Origin: Nitrosopumilus sp.
Lineage (GTDB): Archaea > Thermoproteota > Nitrososphaeria > Nitrososphaerales > Nitrosopumilaceae
Assembly: GCA_963662625.1 (NCBI GenBank)
Contig: OY759726.1
Coordinates: 928,001 to 992,000 of the forward strand
Reading direction: 5' to 3'
DNA: 64,000 nt
The translations under genes and the position numbers were made by a program. This document shows, piece by piece, positions 36,088 through 56,557 of the stretch (positions within the stretch are counted from its first letter, which is position 1; the number at the start of each line of letters is the position of its first letter). The notes beneath the pieces were generated by a model. That model had not been told where the DNA came from, made no database searches, and saw only the letters and a list, made by a program, of their open reading frames with translations.

Positions 36088-36200
36088 TTACCCACATTCG
36101 TCCTTCCCATATTTAACAGATTTACCGGGGTGCGCGGGGCCGCGCGCCGCGGGACGGAGCCATTGTTTTAATACCGCAAGCGCCCACCTTTTACCTTACG

Positions 36201-38504: not shown

Positions 38505-38528
38505 AGCGGCGCGGGCCCCGCCCCCGGG

Positions 38529-40108: not shown

Positions 40109-40113
40109 CCCTC

Positions 40114-40815
40114 TCACGTAATGAACATCTTGGAGTCCATCTCCTCGTGCTGCATCTGGCTGATCTCTATCTGCGGCGAAAACTGCCACATGTCCTCGAC
40201 CGACTTCGCGGCGCTTTCCCTGGCAATCCTCAGCATAAGCGGCTTCAGGCCGTGAATCACCCCCTGGCCCTCGAAATGCTGGATCATCCCAAGGCGCAGC
40301 GCCGCGCCCACGGTGCTCACGACAAAGCCGTACATCAGCATGAGCAGGGATCTCTCCCCGGTGATCCCCAGCGCGTTGCAGCACGCTGCGAGAGACACCG
40401 GGTAGACTCCCGTGACGCCCCCCTCCTGCATCTCGCCGTAGTACCAGTTCAGGACCCTGTCCCCCCCGTGAAACTCCCTGACGCACCTTGCCATCTGGAT
40501 TCCTGACCTGGAGGACGCATCCCTGGCCTCCCTGACCGCCCTGGTGGAGCTGCACGCCGCATCTACCTCCCTGATCTTCTCCAAGTCCCCCGACACGCAG
40601 TGCGCGTGCGCGTTTGCCAGCGCCACGCAGTCGCAGGGGCCGAGCTGTTGCTCCAGGCAAACCCTGTTGAACTCGGCCAGTTCGGGCGCCGTGGTGACCT
40701 TCCCGTCCATGAACAGGCTCTCCAGGCCGCTGGACGTCGCAAACAGCCCGGTCGGAAAAAACGAGTCGGACAGCTGCATCATGTCCAGTTCCCACCCGGG
40801 GCTACCCGTGCCCAT
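40114..40815 (-). CDS. ureF: Urease accessory protein UreF
   Basis: QLSDSFFPTG..A.S.GLE; C-terminal HEEMDSKMFIT. Confidence 0.95.
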   Translation of the reverse strand: MGTGSPGWELDMMQLSDSFFPTGLFATSSGLESLFMDGKVTTAPELAEFNRVCLEQQLGPCDCVALANAHAHCVSGDLEKIREVDAACSSTRAVREARDASSRSGIQMARCVREFHGGDRVLNWYYGEMQEGGVTGVYPVSLAACCNALGITGERSLLMLMYGFVVSTVGAALRLGMIQHFEGQGVIHGLKPLMLRIARESAAKSVEDMWQFSPQIEISQMQHEEMDSKMFIT

Positions 40816-41287
40816 GCACATCCGCTCCCGCATGCGGGGTGAAAACCACCTCCTCCGTGGACAGCTCCACGTGGCCGGCAATCTCTGAGAACAGCCTGCC
40901 AAAAACCTCCAGCTCGGTTCTCGCCTGGATCGGAAAGGACACCACGTCGCCCCTTGCCGAAAACGGCCTGTGCCTGTTCCCGATGACGTGCCCGACCAGC
41001 ACCATGTGGGACGCCTCGCTGGTCTTCAGTCTGACCGAAATGACCTTCTCCGGGAGCTGCTCTACCACTATGGTCCTCCCGCCGCCCGACAGCACGTCGC
41101 CGTGGCGCAGGGACTGGCCCGCCTCCAGGGCGAGGGCCACGTCGGTCCCCCTGTCGGTCCGCCGCCGCATCCTCTTCTTCCCAAGATCCGACCTGGGCAC
41201 CCGGAGCCGCTCGTAGTCCCCCTCCTCGGGGGGAGCGTACCCCTTGTCATGGAAAACGTTTCCGGAAATCGACGTGACTGTCAGCAC
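40802..41287 (-). CDS. ureE: Urease accessory Ni chaperone UreE
   Basis: TDRG...[15 protein letters not shown], His-containing tail; GTG start inferred. Confidence 0.92.
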
Positions 41288-41369
41288 GGTAACCGGTGCA
41301 CCGATCTGGGTTATATCTTGTTGGTCTTTCCCTTTAATTATTAAATACGTCGCCTGGGTAACAGATCCA

Positions 41370-41672
41370 ATGATGCTTACCCCGCGGGAGATGGACAAGC
41401 TGCACATTTTTCTGGCCGCGCAGCTTGCCCGGCGGAGGATGGGCCGGGGGCTGAAGCTGAACCACCCGGAGGCGGTGGCGATAATCGCGGACTACATTCT
41501 GGAGGGCGCGCGGGACGGAAGGTCGGTGCCCGACCTCATGAGCTCGGGAAAGCGGGTCCTGACAAAGGACGACGTGCTGCCCGAGGTGCCGGAACTGATC
41601 CACTCGATACAGGTAGAGGCCACGTTCGACGATGGGACGAAGCTCGTGACCGTGCACGACCCCATAGTGTGA
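41370..41672 (+). CDS. ureA: Urease gamma subunit
   Basis: [10 protein letters not shown]...KLNHPEA...[17 protein letters not shown]. Confidence 0.97.
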
Positions 41673-42046
41673 GGCGCATGAAGCCGGGCGAATACATGAT
41701 ATCCGAAGGCGAGATCATCGCCCACCGGGGCAAGGCGACGGTCTCGCTGCAGGTGACCAACACGGGCGACAGGCCGGTGCAGGTCGGATCCCACACGCAT
41801 TTCTTCGAGGTGAACAAGGCGCTTTCCTTCCAGAGGGAGAGGGCATACGGGTACCACCTCAACATCCCGGCAGGCACCTCGGTGAGGTTCGAGCCTGGAG
41901 ATTCCCGGGGAGTGGAGCTGACAGAATACGGCGGGCGGAGGGCCGTCTTTGGCTTCAGCGGCCTGGTCAACGGGAGCCTGGACGAGAAAAGGGGCGACGC
42001 GATCTGCAAGGCCAGGGAGAGGGGATTCAAGGGGGTCTCTGAGTGA
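41669..42046 (+). CDS. ureB: Urease beta subunit
   Basis: [28 protein letters not shown]. Confidence 0.97.
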
Positions 42047-43755
42047 CGCTGGCCATCCCTAGGAGCAGGTACGTGGATCTCTTCGGCCCGACCGCGGGCG
42101 ACCGGGTGAGGCTCGGAGACACAGACCTGATCGTCGAGGTAGAAAGGGACCTGATCAAGTACGGCGACGAGACCGTCTTCGGCGGCGGAAAGAGCGCCCG
42201 GGACGGCATGGGCCAGGCAAGCGGCGTCACCAGGGAGGGATCGCTGGATCTGGTGATAACAAACGCGATAATCATGGATCCCGTGCTGGGGATAGTAAAG
42301 GGCGACATCGGGATCAAGGACGGAAGGATAGCCGGGATCGGCAATTCGGGCAACCCCAACATCATGGACGGCGTCGACCTGGTCATCTCGTCCAACACCG
42401 AGATCATCGCGGGGGAGCACACCATCTGCACCCCGGGGACCATAGACACCCACATCCATTTCATCTCCCCGCAGCAGGCCGTCGAGGCGATCTGCAACGG
42501 GACGACCACCATGATCGGGGGCGGCACCGGGCCGGCCGACGGGACAAACGCGACGACCTGCACGCCCGGGGCCTGGAACATCCACAGGATGATCGAGGCG
42601 GCCGAGGAGTTCCCCCTCAACTTTGGCTTCCTGTGCAAGGGAAACGATTCCCTGGAACCGGCCCTGCTGGAACAGGTCGAGGCGGGCGCATGCGGCCTGA
42701 AACTGCACGAGGACTGGGGATCCACCCCCGCGGCGATCGACTCTGCCCTGCGCGTGGCCGAAAAGACCGACACCCAGGTGGCAATCCACACCGACACGCT
42801 GAACGAGTGCGGCTTTGTAGACGACACGATCGAGGCGATCGCCGGCAGGACCATACACACCTACCACACGGAGGGCGCGGGCGGCGGGCACGCGCCGGAC
42901 ATCATGAAGGTGGTCGCAGAGAGCAACGTGCTCCCGTCCTCCACGAACCCCACCAGGCCGTTCACGGTAAACACCCTGGCAGAGCACCTTGACATGATGA
43001 TGGTGTGCCACCACCTCAACCCTTCGGTGCCCGAGGACGTATCGTTTGCCGAATCGAGGATCCGGGGCGAAACCATAGCGGCAGAGGACGTCCTGCATGA
43101 CATCGGCGCCATAAGCATGATGTCCTCTGACAGCCAGGCCATGGGGCGCGTGGGCGAGGTCACGACCAGAAACTGGCAGACTGCCGACAAAATGAAGAAG
43201 ATGACCGGGGCTCTGCCCGGGGAGGCCGGCAGCAACGACAACCTGAGGGTCAAGCGGTACCTGGCAAAAATCACCATAAACCCGGCGATAACCCACGGGA
43301 TATCGGAGTATGTCGGGTCCATGGAGCCCGGAAAACTTGCGGACATCGTGGTCTGGACCCCGCAGTTCTTCGGCATAAGGCCCAAGCTCGTCATCAAGGG
43401 CGGGCTCATCGCGTATTCCCTGATGGGCGATCCAAACGCGTCTATACCCACCACGGAGCCCGTATACTACAGGCCGATGTTTGGCGCGATGGGAAACGCA
43501 AAACACTCCACCTCCCTGACGTTTACCTCGGGGCTGGCACTCGAGAAGGGCCTGGAGTCCGCGCTGAACGTAAGGAAGAGGCTGGTCCCGGTCAAGGGCT
43601 GCCGCACCATAGGCAAGAAGGACATGGTGCACAACGACCTGATGCCAAACGTGGAGATCAACCCCGAGACGTACGAGGTGCGGGTCGACGGAAACACGGC
43701 AACCGTAAACCCGTCAGACAGGCTTTCGCTCTCCAGGCTCTACAGCCTGTACTGA
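42043..43755 (+). CDS. ureC: Urease alpha subunit
   Basis: [41 protein letters not shown]. Confidence 0.98.
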
Positions 43756-43853
43756 CCGCCTCTAGTCGACATCGACTATTCCGCGGCCGGCGCCTGGTAT
43801 ATAAAGAAAATAACACCTTGAACTGCTAAGTAATCCGGGCCCAGCTTACCTTC

Positions 43854-45842
43854 GTGAATCGCGGATTCGTCGCCATCATCCCGATCTTGGTCATTGTTGC
43901 CGTTGCCGGTTCTCCCCAGGCCGTCTTCGGCGCCGGCGCCATCTCAGAAGGCTTTACCATAGGTGATGTGCTTGACGAGCAGTGGGGCTGGTTCATAGTA
44001 GTCGGACTCGGAGCCGTCTTTGCCATCGTAATCACCCTTGAGACCAAGGTTGAGGAGAAATATCTGGGCGTCTCCCAAACTTCCGAGTGGTTCAACACCG
44101 CAGGAAGGGTCATCAAGACGGGCCTGACTGCCGCGGCAATCGTCTCGGCATGGACGTGGGCCGCAACCCTGCTGCAGTCCTCCACCGTGGCGTACCAGTA
44201 CGGGATAAGCGGACCGTTCTGGTACGCGGCTGGAGCGTCCATCCAGGTGCTGCTGTTCGGGATACTGGCCATAGAGCTCAAGAGAAAGGCCCCAAACGCG
44301 CACACGTTCCTAGAAATCATACGAGCAAGATACGGTGACGGCGCCCACCGCGTCTTCTTGGTTTTTGCGCTGATGACCAACATGATCGTGACTGCCATGC
44401 TCCTCCTGGGAGGGGCGGCGGTTGTCAACGGGCTGACCGGAATGGACATCTCCCTTGCGGCGTTCCTCATACCGATAGGCGTGATGATATACACCCTCGT
44501 CGGGGGGCTGAAGGCCACGTTCGTCGCCGACTATATGCACACCATAATAATCTTCATAGTGATCCTGACGTTCGTGGCCACGGTCTACTTTGTAAGCCCG
44601 GTCACGGGGGGGATCGAGGGGATGTTTGACAAGCTCACGGAGGCCGCCAGGCTCAACCCCGTCGAAGGAAACGCGATGGGCGCGTACCTGACCATGGCCT
44701 CCCTCGGAGGCCTCATATTCGGCATAATCAACATCGTCGGGAACTTTGGAACGGTGTTCGTAGACCAGGCGTACTGGCAGAGGGCCATAGCGGCCCAGCC
44801 CACCTCCACCGTCAAAGGCTTCCTGCTGGGCGGCGCGTGCTGGTTCGCGATCCCCTTCACGCTGGCCACCACCATGGGGCTCACCGCGGTGGCGCTTGGC
44901 GTTGACCTGACCCCGGAGCAGGTCCAGCTGGGGCTGACCGTGCCGGCGGCGGCGTCGGTCCTCATGGGCGAGGTGGGCGCGGTGATGGTGCTTACCATGC
45001 TTTTCATGGCGGTGACTTCTGCAGGATCGGCCGAACTGATCGCGGTGTCGTCGCTTATAACGTATGACGTGTACCGGACGTACAAGAACCCGCAGGCGTC
45101 AGGCAAGAAGCTGCTGAAGGTCTCCAGGGCGACCATCGTAGGGTTTGGAATAGGGATGGGCGGCCTGGCCGTGGTGCTGTTGAGCATGGGGCTGAGCCTG
45201 GGATTCGTCTACCTGGCGATGGGGGTCCTCATCGGATCGGCGGTAATCCCCATAGCCCTGACCATAACGTGGAAGCGGACCAACAAGTACGCCGCCACGA
45301 TCGGCGCCATAGCCGGGCTGTTCGTCGCGCTGGGAACGTGGGTGGGAGTCGCCGCCTCCCTGCCCGAGCACGGCGGGGTGGTCTCCCTTGCGAGCCTCGG
45401 GAACAACTATTCCATGCTGTTTGGCAACATCGCAGGAATCCTCACGGGCGGCGCCATAGCCGGACTGGGAAGCCTGGCTACGAGGACCAAGTTTGACTGG
45501 GAGGAGATGAAACAAAAGATCAAGCTCGTCGACCTGAGCGAGGAGGACGCGCGCAAGCTCGACGCCGACGAGGCCACCCTCAAGAAGGCCTTCAGGTTCA
45601 GCCTCAAGGGCGGCGGCCTGATGACGCTCGTCCTGATAATAGCGTGGCCCATGCCGCTGTTCTTTGCAGGATACGTGTTTGACATCAACTTCTACTCGCT
45701 GTGGGTGGGGATATCCATAGTGTGGGTGAGCGCCGCGACGTTCTTCATCGTGGGCCTGCCGATAATCGAGGCAAGGCACGGGATTGCCAAAGTCGTGCGG
45801 GGCAACGCGCCGGAGCAGGATTCCGGAGGGGACGCCAAATGA
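43854..45842 (+). CDS. dur3: Second DUR3-type urea active transporter
   Basis: Same DUR3 motifs; extra N-terminal signal-like segment; no USP domain. Confidence 0.92.
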   Translation: MNRGFVAIIPILVIVAVAGSPQAVFGAGAISEGFTIGDVLDEQWGWFIVVGLGAVFAIVITLETKVEEKYLGVSQTSEWFNTAGRVIKTGLTAAAIVSAWTWAATLLQSSTVAYQYGISGPFWYAAGASIQVLLFGILAIELKRKAPNAHTFLEIIRARYGDGAHRVFLVFALMTNMIVTAMLLLGGAAVVNGLTGMDISLAAFLIPIGVMIYTLVGGLKATFVADYMHTIIIFIVILTFVATVYFVSPVTGGIEGMFDKLTEAARLNPVEGNAMGAYLTMASLGGLIFGIINIVGNFGTVFVDQAYWQRAIAAQPTSTVKGFLLGGACWFAIPFTLATTMGLTAVALGVDLTPEQVQLGLTVPAAASVLMGEVGAVMVLTMLFMAVTSAGSAELIAVSSLITYDVYRTYKNPQASGKKLLKVSRATIVGFGIGMGGLAVVLLSMGLSLGFVYLAMGVLIGSAVIPIALTITWKRTNKYAATIGAIAGLFVALGTWVGVAASLPEHGGVVSLASLGNNYSMLFGNIAGILTGGAIAGLGSLATRTKFDWEEMKQKIKLVDLSEEDARKLDADEATLKKAFRFSLKGGGLMTLVLIIAWPMPLFFAGYVFDINFYSLWVGISIVWVSAATFFIVGLPIIEARHGIAKVVRGNAPEQDSGGDAK

Positions 45843-46360
45843 CCCACTGCAGCGGGTGCGGAATAACGCTGGGCTGGAAAAAGTACAAGTTCCAGAGGAT
45901 GTGGCGCATTCCGGGGTACTACTGCAAGCCGTGCATGCTGGATCTCGGACAGGACTTTGACAAGTACGGGAGAATCACGTTGCCCACTAGAAAGTGCGAC
46001 CTCTGCGACGTCGACTATTACTTCCTAAAGCCGTACAACAGGGGCCCCAAACACCGCAACTACTGCCACGTGTGCCACGAGGCCGCAACCAACGGCGTCA
46101 TACCAACCTCCAAGGACCTGCCGCAGCCGCCCAAGAAACTCCCGCTCGTCATGATGATCTTCGCCGGCCTCGGGGGCTTCATGATGCTCGCGGGGCTGGC
46201 ATTCACGATGATGTCCACGGGGAGCGACGCCAGCATCACGAACATCCTGTTTGGCGCGATAACCACGGCCCTCGGGTTCGTCCTGATCAGAAAGACGCTG
46301 AAATCCCGCTCCATGCTGCTGGGAAAAAAAAACGTGGCGCCGACTGAAGCCGCGAGGTAG
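45839..46360 (+). CDS. Double zinc-finger protein with two C-terminal TM helices
   Basis: CSGC, CKPC, CDLC, CHVC; ATGA overlap with the dur3 stop. Confidence 0.75.
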   Translation: MTHCSGCGITLGWKKYKFQRMWRIPGYYCKPCMLDLGQDFDKYGRITLPTRKCDLCDVDYYFLKPYNRGPKHRNYCHVCHEAATNGVIPTSKDLPQPPKKLPLVMMIFAGLGGFMMLAGLAFTMMSTGSDASITNILFGAITTALGFVLIRKTLKSRSMLLGKKNVAPTEAAR

Positions 46361-46373
46361 CCGGGGGGCCCGG

Positions 46374-47129
46374 TCACCGCCCGCCGCCGTGATCCTGCCG
46401 GCCCGCGCCATCTGCGGGCGGGTTCAGGTACTTTACGCCCTGCCCGCCATCGATCTGGTAGCCTGCCCCCCGCCAGAAGCCCTCGTTCTGGACGTCCCTG
46501 ACCCACAGCTTGACAAACCCGTTGCGCCCCAGCTCCCCCTCCATGTGCCCCAGGAGAATCCCTGCTCTCCCCTGCCCCTCCCTTGAAACCTGTATGGAGA
46601 CCACGGTGGGCTCGTACTCGCCCATCTCCGGGTTGAAGTAGTCCACCAGCGCCCTTCCTATGAGGGACTCGCCCTCGTACAGCAAAAAAACCGAGAGGGG
46701 GACCCCCCGGTCCGGCGACTCCACGATCCCGGACGCCGTCCTCACGGACACCCGCCCGGACACGACCTCCTCCTTCTCGACGTGCGGCACCCTGCCGACA
46801 ATGTGTCGAAAGTACCCGAAACTGTCCCTTAAAATCCCGGCAATGTCGTCGCACAGCTGCAGGGACGCGTTTGCCACCAGCCACACGTAGTGCGAGTCTA
46901 TGGTGCCAGCCCTCCGCCCCCCGCTGAAGATCATCGCGCTCAGCACCGTCCCGTCCTTGAGCGAGGACCTGACGGCGTACCCCCTCTCCTTGAGCGACTC
47001 TGCCAGCGAGTTTAGCACCTGGTCGGAGTACTGCGAGTGCACCGAAAATATCATGGTTGCCACCCCGGGGTCGACCAGCATCTCGTCGCGCGAAAAGACT
47101 CTCCCGTCCACCAGGAACCTCGGCTCCAC
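46374..47129 (-). CDS. Hypothetical protein with C-terminal GNAT-like domain
   Basis: IQVSREGQGRAGILL (motif A-like) and NEGFWRGAGY (motif B-like). Confidence 0.6.
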   Translation of the reverse strand: MEPRFLVDGRVFSRDEMLVDPGVATMIFSVHSQYSDQVLNSLAESLKERGYAVRSSLKDGTVLSAMIFSGGRRAGTIDSHYVWLVANASLQLCDDIAGILRDSFGYFRHIVGRVPHVEKEEVVSGRVSVRTASGIVESPDRGVPLSVFLLYEGESLIGRALVDYFNPEMGEYEPTVVSIQVSREGQGRAGILLGHMEGELGRNGFVKLWVRDVQNEGFWRGAGYQIDGGQGVKYLNPPADGAGRQDHGGGR

Positions 47130-47169
47130 AGCACGGCTGTGGGCCGGGCGGCATAAAACGGTATTGGGC

Positions 47170-47919
47170 TCACAGGAAGCCGGGGAAGCCGGGAACGACG
47201 ATGCCGGCGATTACGTCCAGCCCTATGGCCCCGGTGACGGCGCCGGCCAGAACCCGCACCCACTTCCCCATCCCCGCAAACCTGCCCGAAATGAGGAACG
47301 TGGAGGACAGCGCCCCGGCCACCGCCATCATGCCGATCACCGAGCCCAGCCCGAACACCAGGACGAACGCCAGCACCTCCGAGATGTCGCTCAGCGCCAC
47401 CACGCCCACCGCGATCAGGCTCCCGCTCCCGGCCAGGCCGTTGAGGCACCCTATTAGGTAGGACTTGTGGGTGTGCGAGTGGCCCCTGCCGTGCTCGTGC
47501 GGGTGCGTGTGGACGATGCCGCCCTCGTGCGCGTGGGGATGCTCGTGTCGCACCCGGAATGCCTTCCTTCTGCCGCACATGGATATTCCCAGGGCGACCA
47601 GCACCGCCCCGACCGCAATCTCAAGCCCGTCAAACGCCATGGCCGGGATGCCCAGCGCAAACACGAACACCAGGGCGCTGACGAGGAGGATCGTGGACAT
47701 GTGGCCAAACCCCCAGAACGCGCCCAAGAGGGAGTTCCTGAGGGCCGCCGCCCAGGTTCCCCCGAAGGGCCCGGCCGGATCTTTCTTCCCGCCGCCCCGC
47801 ACCTGCGTCAGCATGGCAGCCACGTGATCCGGCTCGAAGGCATGCAGCAAGCCCACCAAAAACCCCGCAGACAGCAGCAGGCCGCCTCCCAGCTGCGCGA
47901 GCGACTCCCCCACTACCAT
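47170..47919 (-). CDS. Nickel transporter-like membrane protein (UreH/NicO-type)
   Basis: GLLHAFEPDHVAAM, WGFGH, His-rich loop HEHPHAHEGGIVHTHPHEHGRGHSHTH, GLAGS; ATG 47919. Confidence 0.85.
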   Translation of the reverse strand: MVVGESLAQLGGGLLLSAGFLVGLLHAFEPDHVAAMLTQVRGGGKKDPAGPFGGTWAAALRNSLLGAFWGFGHMSTILLVSALVFVFALGIPAMAFDGLEIAVGAVLVALGISMCGRRKAFRVRHEHPHAHEGGIVHTHPHEHGRGHSHTHKSYLIGCLNGLAGSGSLIAVGVVALSDISEVLAFVLVFGLGSVIGMMAVAGALSSTFLISGRFAGMGKWVRVLAGAVTGAIGLDVIAGIVVPGFPGFL

Positions 47920-48308
47920 GCGCCGCCTCCGTCCAGCGGGCTTTCGCCGTGGGTGGCAGGTATGGGGCGGCTCAGGGAGACGGTGAACCTCTCGCCTGCC
48001 ATGACAACCTCGAAGTCCAGCCCCTGCAGCATCTCCGGGACCCCGATCATGACCTGCCCGGGCGACAGGATCGACGCCGCCTCCCTCCCGATCCGCCCCC
48101 CGTCCTTTCCCTCCCTGAGCGACGAGACGACGAACGCAGAGAACAGCAGCAGCGCGTCGTTGACGTTGATCCTCTGCCGCCGGCCCAGCATGCATCCCAC
48201 CCTATCGCAGGCCGCAAGGAAGGCCGCGTCGTCGGGCCCGTCGAACTGGAAGTTCTTCGTGTACGGCATGACGTCGGGCTCGCCCCTGACGGTGATCGTG
48301 ATCCGCAT
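47913..48308 (-). CDS. Divergent urease gamma-subunit-like protein (131 aa)
   Basis: RRQRINVNDA...SLREGK...ILSPGQVMIGVPEML...FEV...VSLSRPI aligns by eye to Ure[11 protein letters not shown]...ARDGR...[19 protein letters not shown]...VTVHDPI; ATGA-coupled to the ureohydrolase. Confidence 0.7.
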   Translation of the reverse strand: MRITITVRGEPDVMPYTKNFQFDGPDDAAFLAACDRVGCMLGRRQRINVNDALLLFSAFVVSSLREGKDGGRIGREAASILSPGQVMIGVPEMLQGLDFEVVMAGERFTVSLSRPIPATHGESPLDGGGAW

Positions 48309-49423
48309 CAGTCTCTCTTTGGGATTTCCGCCCTCGGGCCGCCGAAACTGTACGTGTGCCCGGTGCCCCTGTAGTCGTGCGGCCTGACCGGGCTCCCGCC
48401 GTCCAGCCCCCGTTTCGTGAGGGACAGCCCCGCCAGCAGCTCCACGACGAGCCTTTGCCCCAGCCCCGACGTTATGCCCCCGTTGTACGAGCTGTTGTCG
48501 CTTACGTCGTAAGCCGGAGAAACCTCGACGAGGTCCATCGCGAACCTGTCCGGGTCGAACGACTTGGACAGCAGCCGGATCATCCTGATTCCCTCCCTGG
48601 AAGTGAGGCCGTTGGGCTCCGGCTCCCCGGTACCGGGCGCGTATGCCGGGTCGAAGGAGTCTATGTCCCAGCTCAGGTACACCGCGTCGGTGCCGTCGTT
48701 TGCCCTGTCCGCGATCTCCTTTGCGATGTAGTCGATCCCCAGCTCCTCCACGTCCAGCATGGTGAACCACTGGAAGTCCTGGTCTGCCATCCACTTGTAC
48801 AGGTCCGGCCCGGGCCAGTACCCCCTAGGCCCCACGAGGGAGTAGTTCTTCCCCTTCAGGCAGCCCATCTCCATTATCCGCCGGATGTGCGCCCCGTGGT
48901 CGTACTTGTAGCCGGTCAGGCCCTGCGGGGCGCAGTCCGCGTGGGTGTCGAAATGGATCATCCCTATGTTCTTGTATTTCTTGGCAAAAGCCCGCACGTT
49001 GGCGTACGTGATGGAGTGGTCGCCCCCCAGCATGACCGGGATCCCGTCCTGCTCGAGGACCTCCTTGACCTTCACCGTCATCCTCTTGTGCGACTCTATC
49101 ACGTCCCCGGGGGATACCTGCACGTCCCCGTAGTCCACCGTCTTGAATGTGCCAAACGGGTCTGCCCCCGTCTCTATGTTGAACCTCTCGTACGGGGGGG
49201 ACGGGATGGTGGATGCCGCCCTGATCGCGCGCGGCCCGTACCTTGCGCCGGGGCGGATCGTGGTCCCAAAGTCGAACGGCTCTCCGATTATCGCAACGTC
49301 GGGCTTGACCTCCTTGAGTTCCTCGCTAGACTTTACCCAGGGAAGGTGGAGAAAGGTGTTGATTCCGACAAATGGCGCCACGTCGGCACCCCTGTAGTCG
49401 TCGCCGTAGAACTCCATCCCCAT
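48308..49423 (-). CDS. Ureohydrolase (agmatinase/guanidinase family) of uncertain substrate
   Basis: RPGARYGP, GGDHS, DTHAD, DIDSFDP, GTGEPEP, VEVSP. Confidence 0.92.
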   Translation of the reverse strand: MGMEFYGDDYRGADVAPFVGINTFLHLPWVKSSEELKEVKPDVAIIGEPFDFGTTIRPGARYGPRAIRAASTIPSPPYERFNIETGADPFGTFKTVDYGDVQVSPGDVIESHKRMTVKVKEVLEQDGIPVMLGGDHSITYANVRAFAKKYKNIGMIHFDTHADCAPQGLTGYKYDHGAHIRRIMEMGCLKGKNYSLVGPRGYWPGPDLYKWMADQDFQWFTMLDVEELGIDYIAKEIADRANDGTDAVYLSWDIDSFDPAYAPGTGEPEPNGLTSREGIRMIRLLSKSFDPDRFAMDLVEVSPAYDVSDNSSYNGGITSGLGQRLVVELLAGLSLTKRGLDGGSPVRPHDYRGTGHTYSFGGPRAEIPKRD

Positions 49424-49543
49424 GATGATCCAGCGTTTCTACCAGATTTCTATAAATAAACATTCTAGGTAAAGTACGTTTGGGGAGGGGGCCGGCCCGG
49501 GGAGACGATCTGATTATAAGCGGAATCCCCCGCATGCTACACT

Positions 49544-50767
49544 GTGTTTTCCAAGGCCAGGAACGAGTGGAGCATGATCAACAAGGGGCTGTACTGGGAG
49601 CGCTACGGCGAGTTCGGCAGGGCGGCCCGGTGTTTCGGCAAGGCGCTGAGGATAGACCCGCACAACGTCGTGGCAAACCTGCACATGGGAACGTCCCTGT
49701 ACCGCGCAAGCAGGTTCGCCGACGCGCTGGCGTGCTTTGACCGGATCCTCGCCGACGATCCAAAAAACATCGACGCCTCGCACAACAGGGGGCTCTGCCT
49801 GGAAAAGCTGGGCAGGTACCCGGAGGCCATCTCGTCCTTCCGCCGCGCGCTCGAGGCGGATCCCGGCTGCCTCGACTCAAAGACGTACATGGCGGCATGC
49901 GAGAGCGGCCTGGGCAGGCACGGCGACGCCATCGCCCTGCTGGACGACGTGCTGGGAAAGGATCCGAGGAACTCCGCGGCCCTGTACAACAAAAGCACGG
50001 TCCTCGGGCGAATGGGCAGGCAGTCCGAGTCCATATTCCACCTGAACCTGGCGCTGGGGGAGGACTCGAGGCAGTCGGGGATCTGCCATGGCAAGGGCAG
50101 GCTGCTCGCCTCCAGGGGGCGCCACGAGGAGGCGATAAAGTGGTACTCCAAGGCCCTCGAGTACGACCCAAAGAACCTGGACGCGCTGGTCGCGAAGGGC
50201 TGGACGCTGGATCTGGCCGGGTTTTCCCCAAAGGACGTCTTTGCGTTCTTTGACAGGGCGCTCGAGATCGACCCGGAGTTCACCGAAGCCTGGCTGAACA
50301 AGGGCTTCGTCCTGGACCGGACGGGGCTGTTCAAGAAGGCAGTCGGGTGCTTCGAGAGCGTCCTGGAATACGACCCCCGGAACGTCCGGGCGCTGTACAG
50401 CAAGGGGGTGTCGCTGTTCTCCCTCAAGCAGCACAGCGCGGCGATCTTTTTCTGCGGCGAGGCCATACGGCTCGATCCGTCCAACGTCAAGGCGCTGTGC
50501 AGCATGGTGTGGGTCCTGGAACACAAAAAAAACTACGCCGACGCCCTAAAGTACTGCGACAGGGCGCTCGAGATCGACCCGGACTACGCCTACGCGGTCA
50601 GCTACAGGGGAAAGATCCTGCTGTCCATGAAAAGGTATGACGAGGCCCTGGAATGCTACGACACGGCCCTGAAGCTGGATCCCAAAAACCAGACTGCGAT
50701 CTACCACAAGGAAAAGGTGCTGGAACAGATGAGGAAGAGGGACCGGGGGAGCCCCGCCAAAACCTGA
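49544..50767 (+). CDS. Tetratricopeptide repeat protein (about 11 repeats)
   Basis: Repeated NKG..L..LG...EA...FD.AL..DP units. Confidence 0.9.
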   Translation: MFSKARNEWSMINKGLYWERYGEFGRAARCFGKALRIDPHNVVANLHMGTSLYRASRFADALACFDRILADDPKNIDASHNRGLCLEKLGRYPEAISSFRRALEADPGCLDSKTYMAACESGLGRHGDAIALLDDVLGKDPRNSAALYNKSTVLGRMGRQSESIFHLNLALGEDSRQSGICHGKGRLLASRGRHEEAIKWYSKALEYDPKNLDALVAKGWTLDLAGFSPKDVFAFFDRALEIDPEFTEAWLNKGFVLDRTGLFKKAVGCFESVLEYDPRNVRALYSKGVSLFSLKQHSAAIFFCGEAIRLDPSNVKALCSMVWVLEHKKNYADALKYCDRALEIDPDYAYAVSYRGKILLSMKRYDEALECYDTALKLDPKNQTAIYHKEKVLEQMRKRDRGSPAKT

Positions 50768-50859
50768 TCCCAGCGGGAAATTCGTACTGTACGCCTGGGA
50801 CGGGCGGGGCCAAAGCCATGCTGCAAAATTCTTATATCGTACGACCTTTTGTTCCATCT

Positions 50860-51111
50860 ATGGTAAGGGTCTCGACGCCTGAGGACATAAGGAGGGAATC
50901 CATGCGGGTGGTCAGCTCGCTGTACGGCGAGGTGTCGGACTTCCGCGTCAACGAAACATTCCAGATGCCCGAGAAGGGGCCGAGAGAGGCGTGGGACGTC
51001 CAGGTAAACTTCATGCTGAACGGCCTCAAGTACACGGTGGATCTTGAGATACAGGAAAGCGACGGCCAGGTGACCAACGCGCGGCTGATAGACACCATGA
51101 CCCCGCTCTAG
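50860..51111 (+). CDS. Small hypothetical protein (83 aa)
   Basis: ATG 50860 about 25 bp after TATA-like ttatat; alpha/beta pattern. Confidence 0.7.
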   Translation: MVRVSTPEDIRRESMRVVSSLYGEVSDFRVNETFQMPEKGPREAWDVQVNFMLNGLKYTVDLEIQESDGQVTNARLIDTMTPL

Positions 51112-51130
51112 TCCCGGGGCCGCCGCGCTC

Positions 51131-51652
51131 CTAGACTGTCAGCAGCTCCCTTGCGGCCTTGATCTTTTGGAGCAGCTCGTTGATGTAATGGTCGGCAAAC
51201 CTCTCAAACGGCACCCGTCCCGCGCCGTTTTTCGAGCGCCGGCAGTGCTTCTGGTACTCTTTTTGGAGCCAGCCAAAATCCGACTCCTTGAGCCTGATGA
51301 CGTTTTGCTGCGAGTCAAACTTGGACTCGAAGAGGTTCGCAAGGAAGTAAGCCACGAAATGGGCAAAAGCGCTGATCCGGTACTTCGCCCTGTACTCCTC
51401 GCCCAGCCTGCGGTGGTTTTCCTCGAGCCACCCCTTCACGTCGGAACGGACGGTGAGCGTGCTGTACCTTCCGGCCAGGTCCACGGTGGTCCTGCGGGAT
51501 TCCACCGTGTATCTCCCCAGCTGCACCTCGTTCATCAGAATTATCAGCGTGCTCGGCAGGAACATGCCCGGGTAGAACGTGTCCGTCACGCTCTCCAAGC
51601 GCGCCAAGACGCTTGGCTTCAGGCCAATGGTGGAATAGCCTTTGCCGGGCAT
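51131..51652 (-). CDS. Hypothetical protein with internally repeated ribbon-helix-helix-like units
   Basis: GYSTIGLKPSVLARL / RYSTLTVRSDVKGWL / QNVIRLKESDFGWL. Confidence 0.65.
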   Translation of the reverse strand: MPGKGYSTIGLKPSVLARLESVTDTFYPGMFLPSTLIILMNEVQLGRYTVESRRTTVDLAGRYSTLTVRSDVKGWLEENHRRLGEEYRAKYRISAFAHFVAYFLANLFESKFDSQQNVIRLKESDFGWLQKEYQKHCRRSKNGAGRVPFERFADHYINELLQKIKAARELLTV

Positions 51653-51701
51653 GGTTTGCTAGTGCCGCTATGGGTTATATCGTTTGTGAAAGGGAGCGGG
51701 A

Positions 51702-51866
51702 TCATTTTTTCAGATCCTTGATTATCCTGAACACTATCCACACCGCCGCAATCACGATGGTGCCCACCCCCAGCCCGCTGAGAAAGGGATCGCCGCCCTG
51801 CTCCACGTGGATCAGCCCGAAACCCAAGATTATCAGGATTACCGCGAGCGCGAACTGCTTGTCCAT
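51702..51866 (-). CDS. Small two-TM membrane protein (54 aa; not in the ORF track)
   Basis: MDKQFALAVILIILGFGLIHVEQGGDPFLSGLGVGTIVIAAVWIVFRIIKDLKK. Confidence 0.7.
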   Translation of the reverse strand: MDKQFALAVILIILGFGLIHVEQGGDPFLSGLGVGTIVIAAVWIVFRIIKDLKK

Positions 51867-52047
51867 GGACTCCGATCAGGAATTCAGGTTAAAAGTCTGC
51901 CAGGCGCCCCGGGTTCCGGATCGCGCCCCCCGCCGGGCCGGAGATCTGGCGGCCTTGGTGTAATGTTTTGGATTTTTGGCGGCCATTCTTGTAAAAATCC
52001 ATATAACCTGTACTATACGCATTATTTTTTATTCATAAAACGTACTT

Positions 52048-52063
52048 TACTTAAAAATTTCAA
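52048..52063 (+). promoter_or_regulatory. Promoter element TACTTAAAAATTTCAA (copy 1)
   Basis: Identical 16-mer also at 53710-53725; contains TATA-like TTAAAAAT. Confidence 0.6.
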
Positions 52064-52094
52064 TATTTAAATAATTTTTTGCCCAAGCTTACCT

Positions 52095-53660
52095 GTGGCC
52101 GCCTTTGGGGATTTTGGAATTGCGATAGCAGCCTTCATCGTGCTGACTCTGGTAGTCGGCATACTGACGGGCAAGCTGGTGAAGCAGAGCGGAAGGCGCC
52201 TCATCGTGGCGGGAAAGAGCCTGCCGCTTGCGATGGTCGGCACGATGCTGGCCGCCCAGGCAGTCGACGGAAACTCCACGCTCGGAAACGTGGCGCTAGT
52301 GTTCGAATTCGGGTTCTGGGCCGGGGCCGTGGTGCCAATCGGCCTGGGGGTCTGCCTGCTGATCACCGCAGCGTTCTACGCCAAACCGCTCAACAAGATG
52401 ATGATGATCACCCTGCCCGACTTTTACTTTAGGAGGTACGGGAACGGCGCCGAAGGGATCTCCGGCGTGCTGATGATAATAAGCTTCATAGTGCTGGTTG
52501 CCGGCAACCTGGCGGCCAGCGGGTTCATCCTGGAGACGGTGTTTGGGATCGACTATTTCTGGGGAATCCTGATCTCCGCGCTGGTGGTGGTGGCGTACAC
52601 CGTGGCGGGGGGGCTTTTTGCGTCTGCCTATACCAACCTGTTCCAGGTCTACCTCGCCATCGGGGCTTTCTGGGTGGGGTTCCTGTTCTTCGCGGGCGGG
52701 TTCTCCGGCGCCCCGTGGGACGTGATATACAACAGCGCCCCGCCGGAATACCTGGACCTGTCGGGCCTGTACGACATCGGCAACGGGGCGCTGATCAACT
52801 GGGGCGCGATACTTGCCCTGGGACTCGGGGACATCATTGCGCTCGACTTTATGGAAAGGGTCTTCGCGGCAAAGAACCCCAAGACCGCCAGGAGGGGGGC
52901 GTTCATGGGCGGCGCGCTGACGCTGTTCACGGTGGTCCCCACCAGCATGCTGGGAATAGTGGCCCTGTACTACCTCCCGGCAGACACGCTTCCTGACTTC
53001 GCCCTGCCCCTGCTGGCCACCGAACACCTCCCGTTCGCCATAGGCGCCGCCATACTGATGGGGGTCATAGGGGCGTCCATGTCCACCGCCAGCGGGGGCC
53101 TGCTGGCCATATCGAGCGTCGTGTCCAGAAACCTGGTCACCAGGATCATACGTAGGCGCTGGCTGGGAAAGCCAGGCACCGACGACAGGAAGCTGCTCTT
53201 CATGACGCGAGTAGTCATAGTGCCGATGATGGTGGCCGGGACGACCCTGGGCTACTTTGTTCCGGCGCCCGGCGTTTACCTGGTTTTGGCGTTTGACATC
53301 ATGTTCGCGGGGGCGTTTGCCCCCCTGACCTTCGGCCTGTTTTGGAAAAAGGCGAACATGCCGGCGGCGATAGCGTCGCTGCTGGTGGGATCGTCCCTGA
53401 GGCTGTCGTTCTTTTTCACCATGCCGGAGGAATGGGCGGGGCTGGACACGATGATCCCTCCGGTCGTCTCCTTCGTCGTATTCATTGGGGTGGCCCTCGC
53501 CACCCAGGGCAGGTACCCCGGAAAGGCGCGGCACGACGTCAGGGACTACGTCCCGCCGGAGGAGGACATCATCATCGGCGAGGACCTCAAGCACTTCAAG
53601 GGCGATTTTATGAGCTCCGGGTTCGACGTGAGCGCTGACCGGCCAGAAGGCAAGACATGA
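52095..53660 (+). CDS. Sodium:solute symporter (SSS; choline-transporter-like subgroup)
   Basis: AGKSLPL, TLPDFYFRRYG, YTVAGGL, ERVFAAK, ASMSTASGGLLA; about 13 TMs. Confidence 0.9.
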   Translation: MAAFGDFGIAIAAFIVLTLVVGILTGKLVKQSGRRLIVAGKSLPLAMVGTMLAAQAVDGNSTLGNVALVFEFGFWAGAVVPIGLGVCLLITAAFYAKPLNKMMMITLPDFYFRRYGNGAEGISGVLMIISFIVLVAGNLAASGFILETVFGIDYFWGILISALVVVAYTVAGGLFASAYTNLFQVYLAIGAFWVGFLFFAGGFSGAPWDVIYNSAPPEYLDLSGLYDIGNGALINWGAILALGLGDIIALDFMERVFAAKNPKTARRGAFMGGALTLFTVVPTSMLGIVALYYLPADTLPDFALPLLATEHLPFAIGAAILMGVIGASMSTASGGLLAISSVVSRNLVTRIIRRRWLGKPGTDDRKLLFMTRVVIVPMMVAGTTLGYFVPAPGVYLVLAFDIMFAGAFAPLTFGLFWKKANMPAAIASLLVGSSLRLSFFFTMPEEWAGLDTMIPPVVSFVVFIGVALATQGRYPGKARHDVRDYVPPEEDIIIGEDLKHFKGDFMSSGFDVSADRPEGKT

Positions 53661-53709
53661 CCCCGTCCGGGCCCCGGGCGGCACGGGTTCCGGGCGCCGC
53701 CCGTGGCAA

Positions 53710-53725
53710 TACTTAAAAATTTCAA
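53710..53725 (+). promoter_or_regulatory. Promoter element TACTTAAAAATTTCAA (copy 2)
   Basis: Identical to 52048-52063; ends 16 bp before the chaperonin ATG. Confidence 0.6.
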
Positions 53726-53740
53726 CAAGGGAGCATCAGG

Positions 53741-55426
53741 ATGAAATACCCCGATCTGATCAACCCGGAAATCTCGCGGATCGGCGTCCAAGAGTCACAG
53801 ATGTATAACATAGTCGCCGGGCAGCTGGTGACCGAAATCGTCAAGACGTCATTTGGCCCGCGAGGAATGGAGAAGGTGTACATCGACATCCTCGGAGAGG
53901 CCACGGTCACCAAGCACGGCGGGGCCTTCCTGAGGAAGATAGACGTCGACCACCCTGCAGCAAAGACGGTGGTCGAGGCCGTCAACGCCGTGGACACGCA
54001 CGTGGGCGACGGCACCGTCACAGCGGCGGTGCTGATCGGGGCTCTGCTCAAGCGGTCCCGGGCCCTGCTGGGGATGGGGGTCCCGACGGCCGCAGTCATC
54101 CGGGGCTTTGAGGTGGGCCTGGACTTTGCACTGGAGGCCCTGGAGGGGATGAAGATCAAGTCGGACCACGCAGACAGGCGGATGATGGCGAGGGTGCTTG
54201 ACTCCTGCCTGGAAGGAAAGGCGATCTTCGACTCCCTGCACGAAGACTCGCAAATCAGCAAGATGATAATCGACGCCGTATGCAGCGTGACTGACTTTGC
54301 CAAACGGAAGACGGACGTGGACAGCATCAAGATCGAGGAAAAACAGGGCAACTCGTCAGACATCCGGCTCGTGATGGGCACCGTGGTGGACAAGACCATA
54401 GACAGCCCCGCAATGCCAGTCGCGCTGGAGAACGCCAGGATCCTCCTGCTAAACGACCCGCTTGAGACCATGCGCACGAAGACGGAGTCGGAGATAGAGG
54501 TGTCCTCCCCCGGCCAGATGGGACAATTCCTGAAGCAGGAGGGCGCCGACGTCCTCTCCCTGGCCAAGAAGATCGTGGACTCTGGCGCAAAGGTGGTCGT
54601 GTCCCGAAAGGGAATCGGCGACCTCGCGCAGGAATACCTCGCAAGGGCCGGGATAATCTCCGTCCGCAGGGCAAAATACAACGATCTCTGGTGGCTGGAA
54701 AAGTCCACCGGGGCCAAGACGTGCATGGATGTCGAGAGGATCTCCGACGGCGAGCTGGGCTTTGCCTCGTCGGTGTATGAGCAGGACGTCGGGGGGGACC
54801 GGATGCTGTTCGTTGAGGCGAGGCAGCCCAGGTCCGTGACGCTCCTGCTGCGCTCCGTCTCCAAAAGCTACCTGGACGAATTCCACCGCACCGCAAAAAA
54901 CGGGATCTTTGCGCTGAGGAACTTCATCGAGGATCCCCACATCGTCTTCGGGGGCGGCGCGTGCGAGGCGGCGTTGGCGCAGAAGGTCAGGGAGCGCTCC
55001 GGGTTCGTGGAGGGGAGGGAGCAACTTGCGGTGCGGGGGCTTGCCGACGCGCTAGAAGAGATACCGCTGACCCTGGCCAGGAACGTGGGGATGAACGCGC
55101 TGGACGTGCTGCCGCAGCTAAGGGCAAGGGCGGCAGGGGCCAGGAATGCGCGGTGGTACGGGATCGACTCGCGTGCGAGGAGGGTCGGGGACATGCGTTC
55201 CGCAGGAATAGTCGACACCGCGGCAGTCAAGGAGCAGGTGTTGAAGACCGCAGTCGAGGTGACCAACATGATCCTGAACGTGGACGACGTCTTCGTGAAG
55301 GACCTGATCGACAACACGCACTGCCACATAGACGGGACGGTCCATGCCCACAAGGATCCCGGAAGGAACCACAACCACTGGGAACAGGAGGGGCTGGAGC
55401 AGCGCCAGATGCACCACTACTACTGA
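53741..55426 (+). CDS. Divergent group II chaperonin (thermosome paralogue) with His-rich C-terminal tail
   Basis: SFGPRGMEK, VGDGTVT, GGGACE, IPLTLARN; tail THCHIDGTVHAHKDPGRNHNHWEQEGLEQRQMHHYY. Confidence 0.9.
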   Translation: MKYPDLINPEISRIGVQESQMYNIVAGQLVTEIVKTSFGPRGMEKVYIDILGEATVTKHGGAFLRKIDVDHPAAKTVVEAVNAVDTHVGDGTVTAAVLIGALLKRSRALLGMGVPTAAVIRGFEVGLDFALEALEGMKIKSDHADRRMMARVLDSCLEGKAIFDSLHEDSQISKMIIDAVCSVTDFAKRKTDVDSIKIEEKQGNSSDIRLVMGTVVDKTIDSPAMPVALENARILLLNDPLETMRTKTESEIEVSSPGQMGQFLKQEGADVLSLAKKIVDSGAKVVVSRKGIGDLAQEYLARAGIISVRRAKYNDLWWLEKSTGAKTCMDVERISDGELGFASSVYEQDVGGDRMLFVEARQPRSVTLLLRSVSKSYLDEFHRTAKNGIFALRNFIEDPHIVFGGGACEAALAQKVRERSGFVEGREQLAVRGLADALEEIPLTLARNVGMNALDVLPQLRARAAGARNARWYGIDSRARRVGDMRSAGIVDTAAVKEQVLKTAVEVTNMILNVDDVFVKDLIDNTHCHIDGTVHAHKDPGRNHNHWEQEGLEQRQMHHYY

Positions 55427-55516
55427 CTGCGGGAGCCGGCCGCGGGCGATCATGCCTGCCCGGGGGCGCCGCGTTCCGTCCTGTCGCCCTCCCGCGGGAC
55501 GCGCTGCCCGCAGCGG

Positions 55517-56557
55517 CTATTTTTTCAGCGTCTTTTCGACGTTCATGTTAAGCACTATCTCCGAGATGTCGCTGGCGTACTCGGAGACGCGCCTTATGTT
55601 CTCGGTCATCCTCCTGACCCTGTACACCTCCTCGTCGTCCTTACGCGATTTCAGCGCGTCCCTTATCCTCTTCTCGAACTTTACTATCTGCTCGGTCTCC
55701 ACGATCGTCCTTTCTGCCTGGGAATAGTCCTCCTTGAACAGTGCCAGGCACGCGTCGTCGAGCATGGACAGGCAGAACCGGTTCATCTCCTCGATCTTCT
55801 CCAGGATGTCCCTCTTTATCGGCTTTTTGAACTCCAGTATGTCGCTTGCGACAAAGGCCGCGTGGTCACCCGTCCTCTCGATGTTCTTGACGATCAGCCT
55901 GTAGCCCAGGCAGTTCCTGGCGTTCCTGAACCCCATCTCCTTCAGCATGTGCTCGTTCTGGATGGCGATCTTCAGCTGCCGGATGATGTAGAACCCGAAC
56001 CTGTCCACCTCGTCGTCGGTGTTGATCACCTCCCGGGCCAGGTCCTGGTTGCCTTCCTTTACGGCCAGTATCGCGTCGCTTGCCATGGACTCTGCCAGGT
56101 GGATCATCCTCTTGAAGGCCCCGTCCACAGAGATCTCCAGCAGGTTTACGAGGACCTGTACCGTGATCCCGCCACTGGAGTCCGATATTATCTCGGAGCC
56201 CATCAGCATCCTCTTCACCGCCTCCTTGACCGTGTTCCTCTGGTTGGGGCTCAGCCTCCCCTTCTTTGGCTTTACGTTGATGGTCTTGAACCCCAGGAAG
56301 TACAGGGAGATCAGCTTCCGGATGATCGACGAGGGCTCCTCCTCCGCATTGATCTCTATGGTGGCGTCCTCCTTCTTCTGGGACCTGGCCTCGAACTTTG
56401 GCGGAAAGAGCTCCAGGGTGGAGGCCCCCTTCCTGACCATCTTCACGTGGTCCCCCTGCTTCAGGTTGAGCTCCGTAACCCACTGTTTTGGCAGCGAGAC
56501 TATATAGGAAGACTTGCCGGTAAACTGGATCTTCCTGGTCTCCTCTCTCTCTTCCAT
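55517..56557 (-). CDS. phoU: AbrB-PhoU family phosphate uptake regulator
   Basis: RKIQFTGKSSYIVSLPKQW AbrB domain; DDEVDR and IERTGDHA PhoU repeats. Confidence 0.92.
   Translation of the reverse strand: MEEREETRKIQFTGKSSYIVSLPKQWVTELNLKQGDHVKMVRKGASTLELFPPKFEARSQKKEDATIEINAEEEPSSIIRKLISLYFLGFKTINVKPKKGRLSPNQRNTVKEAVKRMLMGSEIISDSSGGITVQVLVNLLEISVDGAFKRMIHLAESMASDAILAVKEGNQDLAREVINTDDEVDRFGFYIIRQLKIAIQNEHMLKEMGFRNARNCLGYRLIVKNIERTGDHAAFVASDILEFKKPIKRDILEKIEEMNRFCLSMLDDACLALFKEDYSQAERTIVETEQIVKFEKRIRDALKSRKDDEEVYRVRRMTENIRRVSEYASDISEIVLNMNVEKTLKK

Follow-up and report, generated by a model that had tools for sequence, protein, structure and literature searches.

The window analyzed here is a 64-kb stretch of DNA (G000:C1:928001-992000) from a single-contig genome of 1.86 Mb that is 99.5% complete. 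The source genome belongs to the class Nitrososphaeria and was read as that of an ammonia-oxidizing archaeon (AOA). Four open reading frames (ORFs) are located at positions 46374-49423 of the window, all on the minus strand and in the same orientation, as described in an initial annotation made from the sequence alone. The coding GC pattern of the genome is seen in all four ORFs, with third-codon-position (GC3) values of 0.86-0.91. The first of these genes encodes a ureohydrolase, denoted UH. UH is part of a widespread module that has no characterized function and whose boundaries, partners and regulation differ from those of the first reading. On balance, UH is judged to be probably the enzymatic core of this larger, conserved and urease-dependent module for import, hydrolysis and urease action. 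The genes and features are as follows.

48308-49423, minus strand: UH, ureohydrolase of a distinct GTGEPEP clade, 371 amino acids, predicted catalytic core (PF00491 match).
47913-48308, minus strand: GAM, urease-gamma (UreA) paralogue, 131 amino acids (fold model, weak Pfam match, TGATG coupling to UH).
47170-47919, minus strand: MEM, NiCoT/NicO-like membrane protein (H-x4-D-H, His loop, NicO match below the cut-off).
46374-47129, minus strand: fourth gene, named "GNAT" initially, a species-specific orphan (ORF, GC3 of 0.86).
49469-49479, minus strand: ACGTACTTTAC box, candidate operator of UH (motif search of the window).
49544-50767, plus strand: tetratricopeptide repeat (TPR) protein, 407 amino acids (TPR families, E 9e-66).
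51131-51652, minus strand: p173, probable single-chain tandem ribbon-helix-helix protein, 173 amino acids (fold model).
52040-52050, plus strand: second ACGTACTTTAC box, ahead of SSS3 (motif search of the window).
52095-53660, plus strand: SSS3, sodium:solute symporter (SSS) (PF00474).
53741-55426, plus strand: THS3, group II chaperonin subunit with a His-rich C-terminal tail (thermosome_alpha).
38529-45842: canonical urease cluster with ureDGFE (minus strand), ureABC (plus strand) and a DUR3-like SSS at 43854-45842 (Pfam matches).

The first three genes overlap, as had been claimed. The UH/GAM overlap is the sequence TGATG sharing the A at position 48308, not ATGA, and GAM therefore occupies 47913-48308 and has 131 amino acids. 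The second overlap, of the GAM stop with the MEM start, is present at 47913-47919 as described. The MEM stop and the start of the fourth gene are separated by a gap of 40 nt with no overlap. The urease cluster just upstream in the window is complete, with ureDEFG all present and the canonical ureA at 41370-41672 (151 bits).

UH matches PF00491 with an E-value of 3.7e-82 and a score of 276.4 bits (cut-off, 22) over residues 42-329 of 371. UH therefore has N- and C-terminal extensions, in agreement with the initial annotation. The metal ligands, all of which had been listed as kept, are H136, D159, H161, D163, D253 and D255, and these six residues are invariant in 40 of 40 orthologues. The stretch GTGEPEPNGLT is also invariant in the 40 orthologues. 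Its sequence was rightly called unusual: the same site is GTGTPE in GbuA and GTGWPE in Sll1077. Approximately 213 of the 371 columns are invariant among these orthologues, including the equivalents of T97 of the guanidinases (within FGTTIRPG) and of the proton-shuttle His and Glu. The pocket position occupied by Trp305 in guanidinases (Synechocystis numbering) and by Thr in GbuA is occupied by Glu in UH; of the pocket-narrowing Thr97 and Trp305 pair that marks guanidine hydrolases of the GdmH clade, UH thus keeps the Thr and has the Trp replaced. As judged from these residues, UH is a catalytically intact ureohydrolase with a predicted activity.

The UH sequence was used as the query in 301 Nitrososphaeria genomes, including the unpublished genomes G282, G132 and G230. 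In 80 genomes it found a total of 81 matches with identities of 74-100%, and no further match exceeded 39%. UH is absent from 221 of the 301 genomes. These genomes are related, and the co-distribution counts given here and below should be read as a pattern, not as statistical evidence. The identities between families in the same genomes are 74-98% for UH and 73-88% for UreC. On this basis, the conservation of UH is somewhat above that of UreC but is neither exceptional nor of another class.

UH scores below the agmatinase equivalog TIGR01230 (159.7 vs 174.3) and below NF002564 (209 vs 302), and passes none of the NCBIfam equivalogs. The second arginase-family gene of the genome (L002:1471-2346) passes TIGR01230 with 209.5 bits, and the housekeeping SpeB is therefore encoded there and not by UH. 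The best solved relative of UH is the guanidinobutyrase GbuA from Pseudomonas aeruginosa (PDB 3nio), with an E-value of 8.3e-52 over residues 12-315, followed by two guanidine hydrolases (1e-48 and 1e-47) and agmatinases (1e-33). UH differs from GbuA in having GTGEPEP in place of GTGTPE and extra conserved termini, and the gene context provides no pointer to an acidic substrate.

These values bear on the possibility that UH is a conventional Mn-dependent agmatinase that duplicates SpeB in polyamine synthesis, its position next to urease being incidental. UH and SpeB have in common the arginase fold, a urea-releasing reaction and the database name, since the 90%-identity protein cluster of UH in public data (1,326 members) is called "agmatinase" and the best-scoring NCBIfam models are agmatinase models. 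The AOA copies are likewise treated as agmatinase or speB in the accessible portions of PMC11131427, PMC10753782 and PMC6790972, one of which notes the position beside an SSS gene. Both agmatinase cut-offs are nevertheless failed by UH, and the equivalog is passed by the separate paralogue, which lies in a different half of the tree described below. The residue after GTG is Glu and not the Thr of agmatinases, and the closest solved relatives are guanidino-acid and guanidine hydrolases. UH is found in only 80 of the 301 genomes, compared with 282 of 301 for weaker arginase-family matches (≤39% identity); it is strictly nested in urease carriers and has a transporter, a regulator and a chaperonin of its own. 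An ordinary agmatinase is highly improbable on this evidence. The initial claim of a distinct ureohydrolase is upheld by the failed agmatinase cut-off, the separate clade and the presence of a separate SpeB.

A search of 1.84 billion cluster representatives gave, as the closest full-length relative of UH, a protein that is 50% identical and also contains GTGEPEP. Its cluster is haloarchaeal and is annotated as "agmatinase family". In 51 loci outside the AOA, nearly all from Halobacteria, an SSS3 homologue is present in 42 (within 5 kb in 41) and urease genes are present in 8. In one Haloarcula locus, the gene order is SSS, AbrB/PhoU regulator and UH. An Aquificaceae metagenome-assembled genome (L119:8782-15826) contains, in this order, ureA, UH (54% identical), an NMT1/SsuA-type ABC transporter, ureG and ureD. 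A sigma-54 activator adjoins this UH-bearing urease cluster.

A FastTree phylogeny was constructed from 89 rows, consisting of 19 clade rows, the SpeB of the genome itself and the first 69 of 123 full-length representatives, with the other 54 left out. The tree holds no characterized enzymes, and its clade labels rest on the searches against solved structures. The AOA clade has a support of 99 and is sister to the Halobacteria and Aquificaceae sequences (98); the tree's other half holds the SpeB of the genome. Of the 150 nearest representatives, only those of the UH clade have Glu after G-T-G. UH forms a separate GTGEPEP clade with homologues in Halobacteria and in one Aquificaceae genome.

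UreC was detected in 124 of the 301 genomes, comprising 79 of the 80 UH-positive and 45 of the 221 UH-negative genomes. Genome G237 is the only one with UH among the 177 genomes without a UreC match, and ureA-ureB are found at the end of its UH contig. UH is a distinct ureohydrolase with its ligands kept and an orthologue that occurs only with urease, and it therefore fits the release of urea for the adjacent urease.

In four genomes of a second family (G234, G243, G199 and G274), two types of UreC are present, one 76-79% and the other 67-68% identical to the UreC of the window. The 76-79% type lies within 10 kb of UH in three of these four genomes and on another contig in G199. Only the second type is present in the UH-negative genomes listed for this family. 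The UH module may travel with its own urease, and transfer of the whole module may contribute to its conservation.

The surroundings of UH were compared over 20 kb around the orthologue in 40 other genomes from three families of the order. SSS3 is present at full length in 37 of the 40 loci, with one additional 117-residue fragment; p173 is present in 36 and THS3 in 30. GAM directly follows UH in 35 of 40 loci, with its start at -3 to +15 nt from the UH stop, and is missing from 5. MEM follows UH and GAM in 28 of 40. UH, GAM and MEM thus recur together across AOA, and the fourth gene occurs in 0 of 40 loci. The proposed four-gene operon was not recovered as a unit: the fourth gene is an orphan, and the partners SSS3, the putative regulator and THS3 lie outside the four ORFs. 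The initial observation is partly confirmed, with the unit drawn wrongly.

No copy of the fourth gene was found at the 40 related loci (0/40) or in 60 relatives (0/60), two genomes of the same genus included. The GNAT identity proposed for this gene received no support from Pfam, in which no GNAT family, PF00583 included, matches even at E ≤ 5, or from NCBIfam, which provided nothing at E ≤ 0.01. GNAT-like clusters appear at 0.93 in an Atlas language-model feature search, which is a lead only. The fourth gene is a species-specific orphan beside the conserved module and not a member of it.

The TPR protein (49544-50767) has its intergenic region in common with UH. It is located beside UH in divergent orientation in most loci of the same family, and no such gene is linked to UH in the other two families. 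It may act as an adaptor of the co-chaperone type. At locus L039 (G283), UH, GAM, MEM, p173 and the TPR protein are present, SSS3 is the 117-residue fragment, and the His-tailed thermosome was not found. Decay of the module is possible at this locus.

SSS3 matches PF00474 with 96.9 bits (cut-off, 22.8) and scores below all of the NCBIfam equivalog cut-offs. Its orthologue is present in 78 of the 80 UH-positive and in 0 of the 221 UH-negative genomes. SSS3 is the tightest partner of UH and a candidate importer of its substrate. Among solved structures, SSS3 is closest to high-affinity choline transporters (E 9.5e-25), and its identity to the DUR3-like SSS in the window is 23%. A small cation is favored as the substrate because the nearest solved relatives of SSS3 carry choline and the UH pocket gains a Glu. 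The anionic or zwitterionic compounds suggested initially (creatine-, guanidinoacetate- or taurocyamine-like) are less favored for the same reasons.

The same data were considered for an alternative in which UH turns over an internal metabolite such as arginine or agmatine and recycles nitrogen via urea, with SSS3 as another urea importer. The module always occurs with urease, and the SSS family includes the DUR3 urea transporters; the linked SSS is called a urea transporter in the accessible portion of PMC11131427. The low identity of SSS3 to the DUR3-like SSS and its proximity to choline transporters argue against a role in urea uptake. The SSS3-UH pair is kept in Halobacteria although urease genes occur in only 8 of the 51 loci described above, and a dedicated regulator with a common operator suggests induction by an external compound. 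Turnover of an internal metabolite is regarded as unlikely, and import of an external substrate by SSS3 is preferred.

The ACGTACTTTAC motif has 2 matches in the window, compared with 0.4 expected. The first copy precedes the UH start codon by 55 nt and is closely followed by a TATA-like box; the second precedes the SSS3 start codon by 54 nt. Both promoters carry an ACGTA-N3-TAC box, which is a candidate operator. The shorter form CGTA-N3-TAC occurs no more than 130 nt from the start of UH in 36 of 41 loci from two families; 34 of these 36 copies are 54-61 nt away and have a TATA-like box after them. The motif is found near the start of SSS3 in 24 of 38 cases, of p173 in 2 of 36, of GAM in 0 of 31 and of MEM in 0 of 29, the background frequency being 0.055 per 150 bp.

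p173 matches nothing in Pfam or NCBIfam. Its predicted structure has a pLDDT of 86 and consists of two beta-alpha-alpha units. The best fold matches are the single-chain tandem ribbon-helix-helix proteins TraY (Z 6.0), AvtR (5.7) and DndE (5.2); single-chain Arc reaches 4.2, and the Foldseek E-value is 0.04. These scores are modest. p173 was also searched for in 126 genomes of the family of the window, including the unpublished genome G344. UH is present in every one of the 27 p173-positive genomes for which the UH state is known. Among the p173-negative genomes listed, 3 of 16 are UH-positive, and all three are fragmented assemblies. The ACGTA-N3-TAC box is most likely bound by p173, a candidate regulator of the module. 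A conserved box of this kind provides a directly testable archaeal regulator-operator pair.

GAM matches Pfam Urease_gamma (PF00547) with 28.1 bits (gathering threshold, 23.9) over profile positions 27-99 only. The GAM model has a pLDDT of 90.7, and all Foldseek matches at E ≤ 0.001 are urease gamma chains or domains with a probability of 1.00. Superposition on free-standing urease gamma subunits provides TMt values of 0.75-0.80 and a root-mean-square deviation of 2.4-2.5 Å over 89 columns. The fold of a urease-gamma paralogue, claimed initially, is therefore borne out. GAM and UreA have the same fold, and the LN..EA and VM.GVPE motifs are kept. GAM differs from UreA in that a two-strand beta-hairpin replaces the first, N-terminal helix, the identity to solved gamma subunits is 20-29%, and the gene is located after UH and outside ureABC. 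The score of GAM is below the functional UreA equivalog of NCBIfam (30.4 vs 123 bits). No conserved His or Cys is found in GAM across 35 orthologues. GAM is probably a duplicate of UreA that would serve as a dispensable accessory.

MEM scores 16.1 bits against NicO (PF03824), below the gathering threshold of 27.7. A NicO match at E ≤ 1 was obtained for 14 of 27 orthologues, with a best E-value of 1.4e-6, and a DsbD_2 match for 5 of 27. No variation is seen among the 27 orthologues at H26, D31 and H32 (H-x4-D-H) or at ten loop histidines. The H-x4-D-H sequence in the first helix is taken here to be the NiCoT metal-binding signature. The description of MEM as Ni-transporter-like holds for this motif and the His loop and falls short for the NicO score. 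MEM resembles the NiCoT/NicO transporters HoxN, NixA and UreH-like proteins in its first helix, its His-rich loop and its weak NicO/DsbD_2 matches; it differs in its sub-threshold Pfam score, its length of approximately 250 amino acids and its occurrence in genomes without urease and UH. MEM is the sole NiCoT/NicO-type candidate of this urease-positive genome, in which no HupE/UreJ is found. The MEM family is present in 55 of the 80 UH-positive and in 42 of the 221 UH-negative genomes, 26 of the latter being without urease. A UH-specific transporter was rejected as an identity for MEM, with 25 UH-positive genomes lacking MEM and 42 UH-negative genomes containing it.

THS3 passes the thermosome_alpha equivalog with 468.8 bits (cut-off, 450). 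Its C-terminal tail contains 7-9 His in the last 50 residues and is kept in 30 of 30 linked copies. A profile of this tail matches 76 genomes at E ≤ 8e-29, all other matches being at E ≥ 1e-12 and restricted to the generic part of the profile. The tail is thereby detected in 75 of the 80 UH-positive genomes and in 1 of the 221 UH-negative genomes (G207). The match in G207 (G207:C1:333793-333984) is a 64-residue frame that covers only the end of the THS3 tail (E 8e-29), in a genome with urease and MEM and without UH. This frame looks like the remnant of a lost module.

Five UH-positive genomes do not contain the THS3 tail, and three of these (G173, G191 and G265, loci L065-L067) form family f5. 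The UH of family f5 is 417 amino acids long and has a C-terminal extension of approximately 45 residues that is rich in HxH, a pattern similar to that of the THS3 tail. No His-tailed thermosome was found in the three f5 genomes with the tail profile. The THS3 tail and the f5 UH tail are thus complementary in placement, and this is the strongest argument that the tail acts on UH, in a proposed chaperonin-client relation. In two of the three f5 loci, GAM is 109-110 amino acids long and nearer to canonical UreA (32-38%, tblastn), and the third locus has none.

The tail and the metal-related neighbors were also considered for the alternative in which GAM, MEM and the His-tailed thermosome serve the maturation of urease or the supply of nickel, with UH as a passenger. 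GAM is derived from ureA, MEM is the only candidate of its type in a urease-positive genome, and nickel enzymes of Helicobacter pylori are assisted by a His-rich co-chaperonin. That protein, HspA, is a GroES with a His-rich, nickel-binding C-terminal tail that is tied to the maturation of nickel enzymes, and it is the closest likeness to THS3. The THS3 tail differs in residing on an archaeal group II chaperonin subunit and in tracking the ureohydrolase and not urease; in family f5 it is found on UH itself. Of the thermosome tail, only the G207 remnant is present in the 45 urease-positive genomes without UH, and a near-full-length GAM match was obtained in none of these 45 with one GAM query. 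The canonical ureDEFG genes are present as well. A set of urease maturation factors is very unlikely, and assistance to UH is preferred as the function of the tail.

The initial annotation noted the absence of HypA/HypB-like chaperones, and this holds genome-wide: HypA has 0 matches, and the cobW matches are UreG and two weak ones. The genome thus encodes no loading chaperone of the HypA/HypB-like type known from Synechocystis. The metal ligands of UH are identical in Ni and Mn enzymes. A Ni or Co center built by a dedicated chaperonin is plausible for UH. The evidence for it, as for the Ni dependence proposed initially, is indirect and consists of the HxH-rich sequences of THS3, MEM and the f5 UH, the H-x4-D-H of MEM, the Ni-using relatives, and the absence of HypA and of HupE/UreJ.

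In the proposed pathway, SSS3, a choline-transporter-like Na+/solute symporter, would import a small guanidino compound that is probably cationic, with free guanidine or a close derivative as the foremost candidate. UH would split this compound into urea and an amine or ammonia, and the neighboring urease would convert the urea to ammonia, which would serve energy metabolism and growth. p173 would control both the UH operon and SSS3 through the ACGTA-N3-TAC box. The binuclear center of UH would probably contain Ni or Co and not purely Mn; the His-rich tail of THS3 would line the folding chamber and help to assemble this center, with MEM as an optional metal importer. The initial interpretation is partly supported by these considerations. 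A more specific version, in which the module is a second archaeal pathway of the guanidine hydrolase type with guanidinium import, a Ni center supplied by the His-tailed chaperonin, and GAM docking to or stabilizing UH, is tentative and rather doubtful.

Several points weigh against the proposed pathway. The activity, substrate and metal of UH are predictions from sequence and gene context. The Trp held to define guanidine specificity is missing from UH, where Glu is found instead. Mn is the usual metal of the ureohydrolase superfamily, GbuA, the top structural relative, is a Mn enzyme, and Zn, Co and Cu are also bound by His-rich stretches. GAM is without a conserved metal ligand and is missing from 5 of 40 loci. 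MEM is neither necessary nor specific for UH and may simply serve urease or cobalt uptake. The evidence from the fold of p173 is modest (Z 6.0, Foldseek E 0.04). Because the genomes share ancestry, the co-distribution counts exceed the number of independent events. From the literature, the treatment of the linked SSS as a urea transporter in PMC11131427 has been noted above. A screen in PMC11410670 found no guanidine-degradation genes in AOA, as reported in its accessible text; its supplementary genome list may bear on this result, and the physiology in the same text covers only ammonia-oxidizing bacteria (AOB) and Nitrospira inopinata. Likewise, according to the accessible text of a 2025 study (PMC12625717), none of the nitrifier genomes examined there, those of AOA among them, has guanidine-degradation genes.

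The nearest characterized systems are GdmH from Synechocystis (Sll1077, PDB 7esr/7oi1) and the guanidinase from N. inopinata (9fek). These enzymes share with UH the superfamily, the six ligands, the equivalents of T97, His and Glu, terminal extensions, and hydrolysis to urea followed by urease, and they match UH at E-values of 1e-48 to 1e-47. The N. inopinata guanidinase also resembles the UH system in being without known Ni chaperones, according to the accessible part of PMC11410670. UH differs from both in forming a separate clade at approximately 35-40% identity with Glu for Trp305. The UH module further differs in having no riboswitch, no HypA/HypB-like chaperone, an SSS importer in place of ABC/APC transporters, and a UreA paralogue and a His-tailed thermosome as accessories. 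No description of the module was found in the open-access papers searched, supplements not being covered.

AOA are among the most abundant microbes of oceans and soils, and their sources of ammonia shape models of nitrification. Urea and cyanate are the accepted organic sources. If the tentative guanidine-hydrolase version of the pathway is correct, approximately two thirds of the urease-positive AOA species (80 of 124 sampled), together with many Halobacteria, would take up guanidinium or a closely related small cation and cleave it to urea and ammonia. The view that AOA cannot use guanidine would then be overturned, and the assembly of a metal center by a chaperonin would be new. The opening of a new substrate would widen the diet of AOA and change niche models for AOA relative to comammox and AOB. 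The His-tailed thermosome that tracks one enzyme, with the tail located on the enzyme itself in family f5, provides a testable case of a client-specific, metal-delivering chaperonin.

Additional features of the window were recorded around the urease cluster. No riboswitch from Rfam was detected at E ≤ 0.1 over positions 36000-56000, where the only match is RF02514 (5' ureB sRNA of Helicobacter) at 42196-42488 on the minus strand, antisense within ureC, with 42.2 bits against a gathering threshold of 40. The likeliest source of this match is the conserved coding sequence of urease rather than an RNA gene. At 36201-38504 on the plus strand, beside ureD, the window encodes a third sodium:solute symporter that carries a fused universal stress protein domain at its C-terminus; homologues are found near the module in other loci too. 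A small protein of no known family, with Cys-rich motifs and a C-terminal membrane segment, is encoded at 45845-46360 on the plus strand after the DUR3-like symporter. Copies of this protein that are 58-74% identical are located beside the DUR3-like symporter in loci L044, L060 and L061; one further copy, 73% identical, lies at the edge of locus L007, where only its end is visible.

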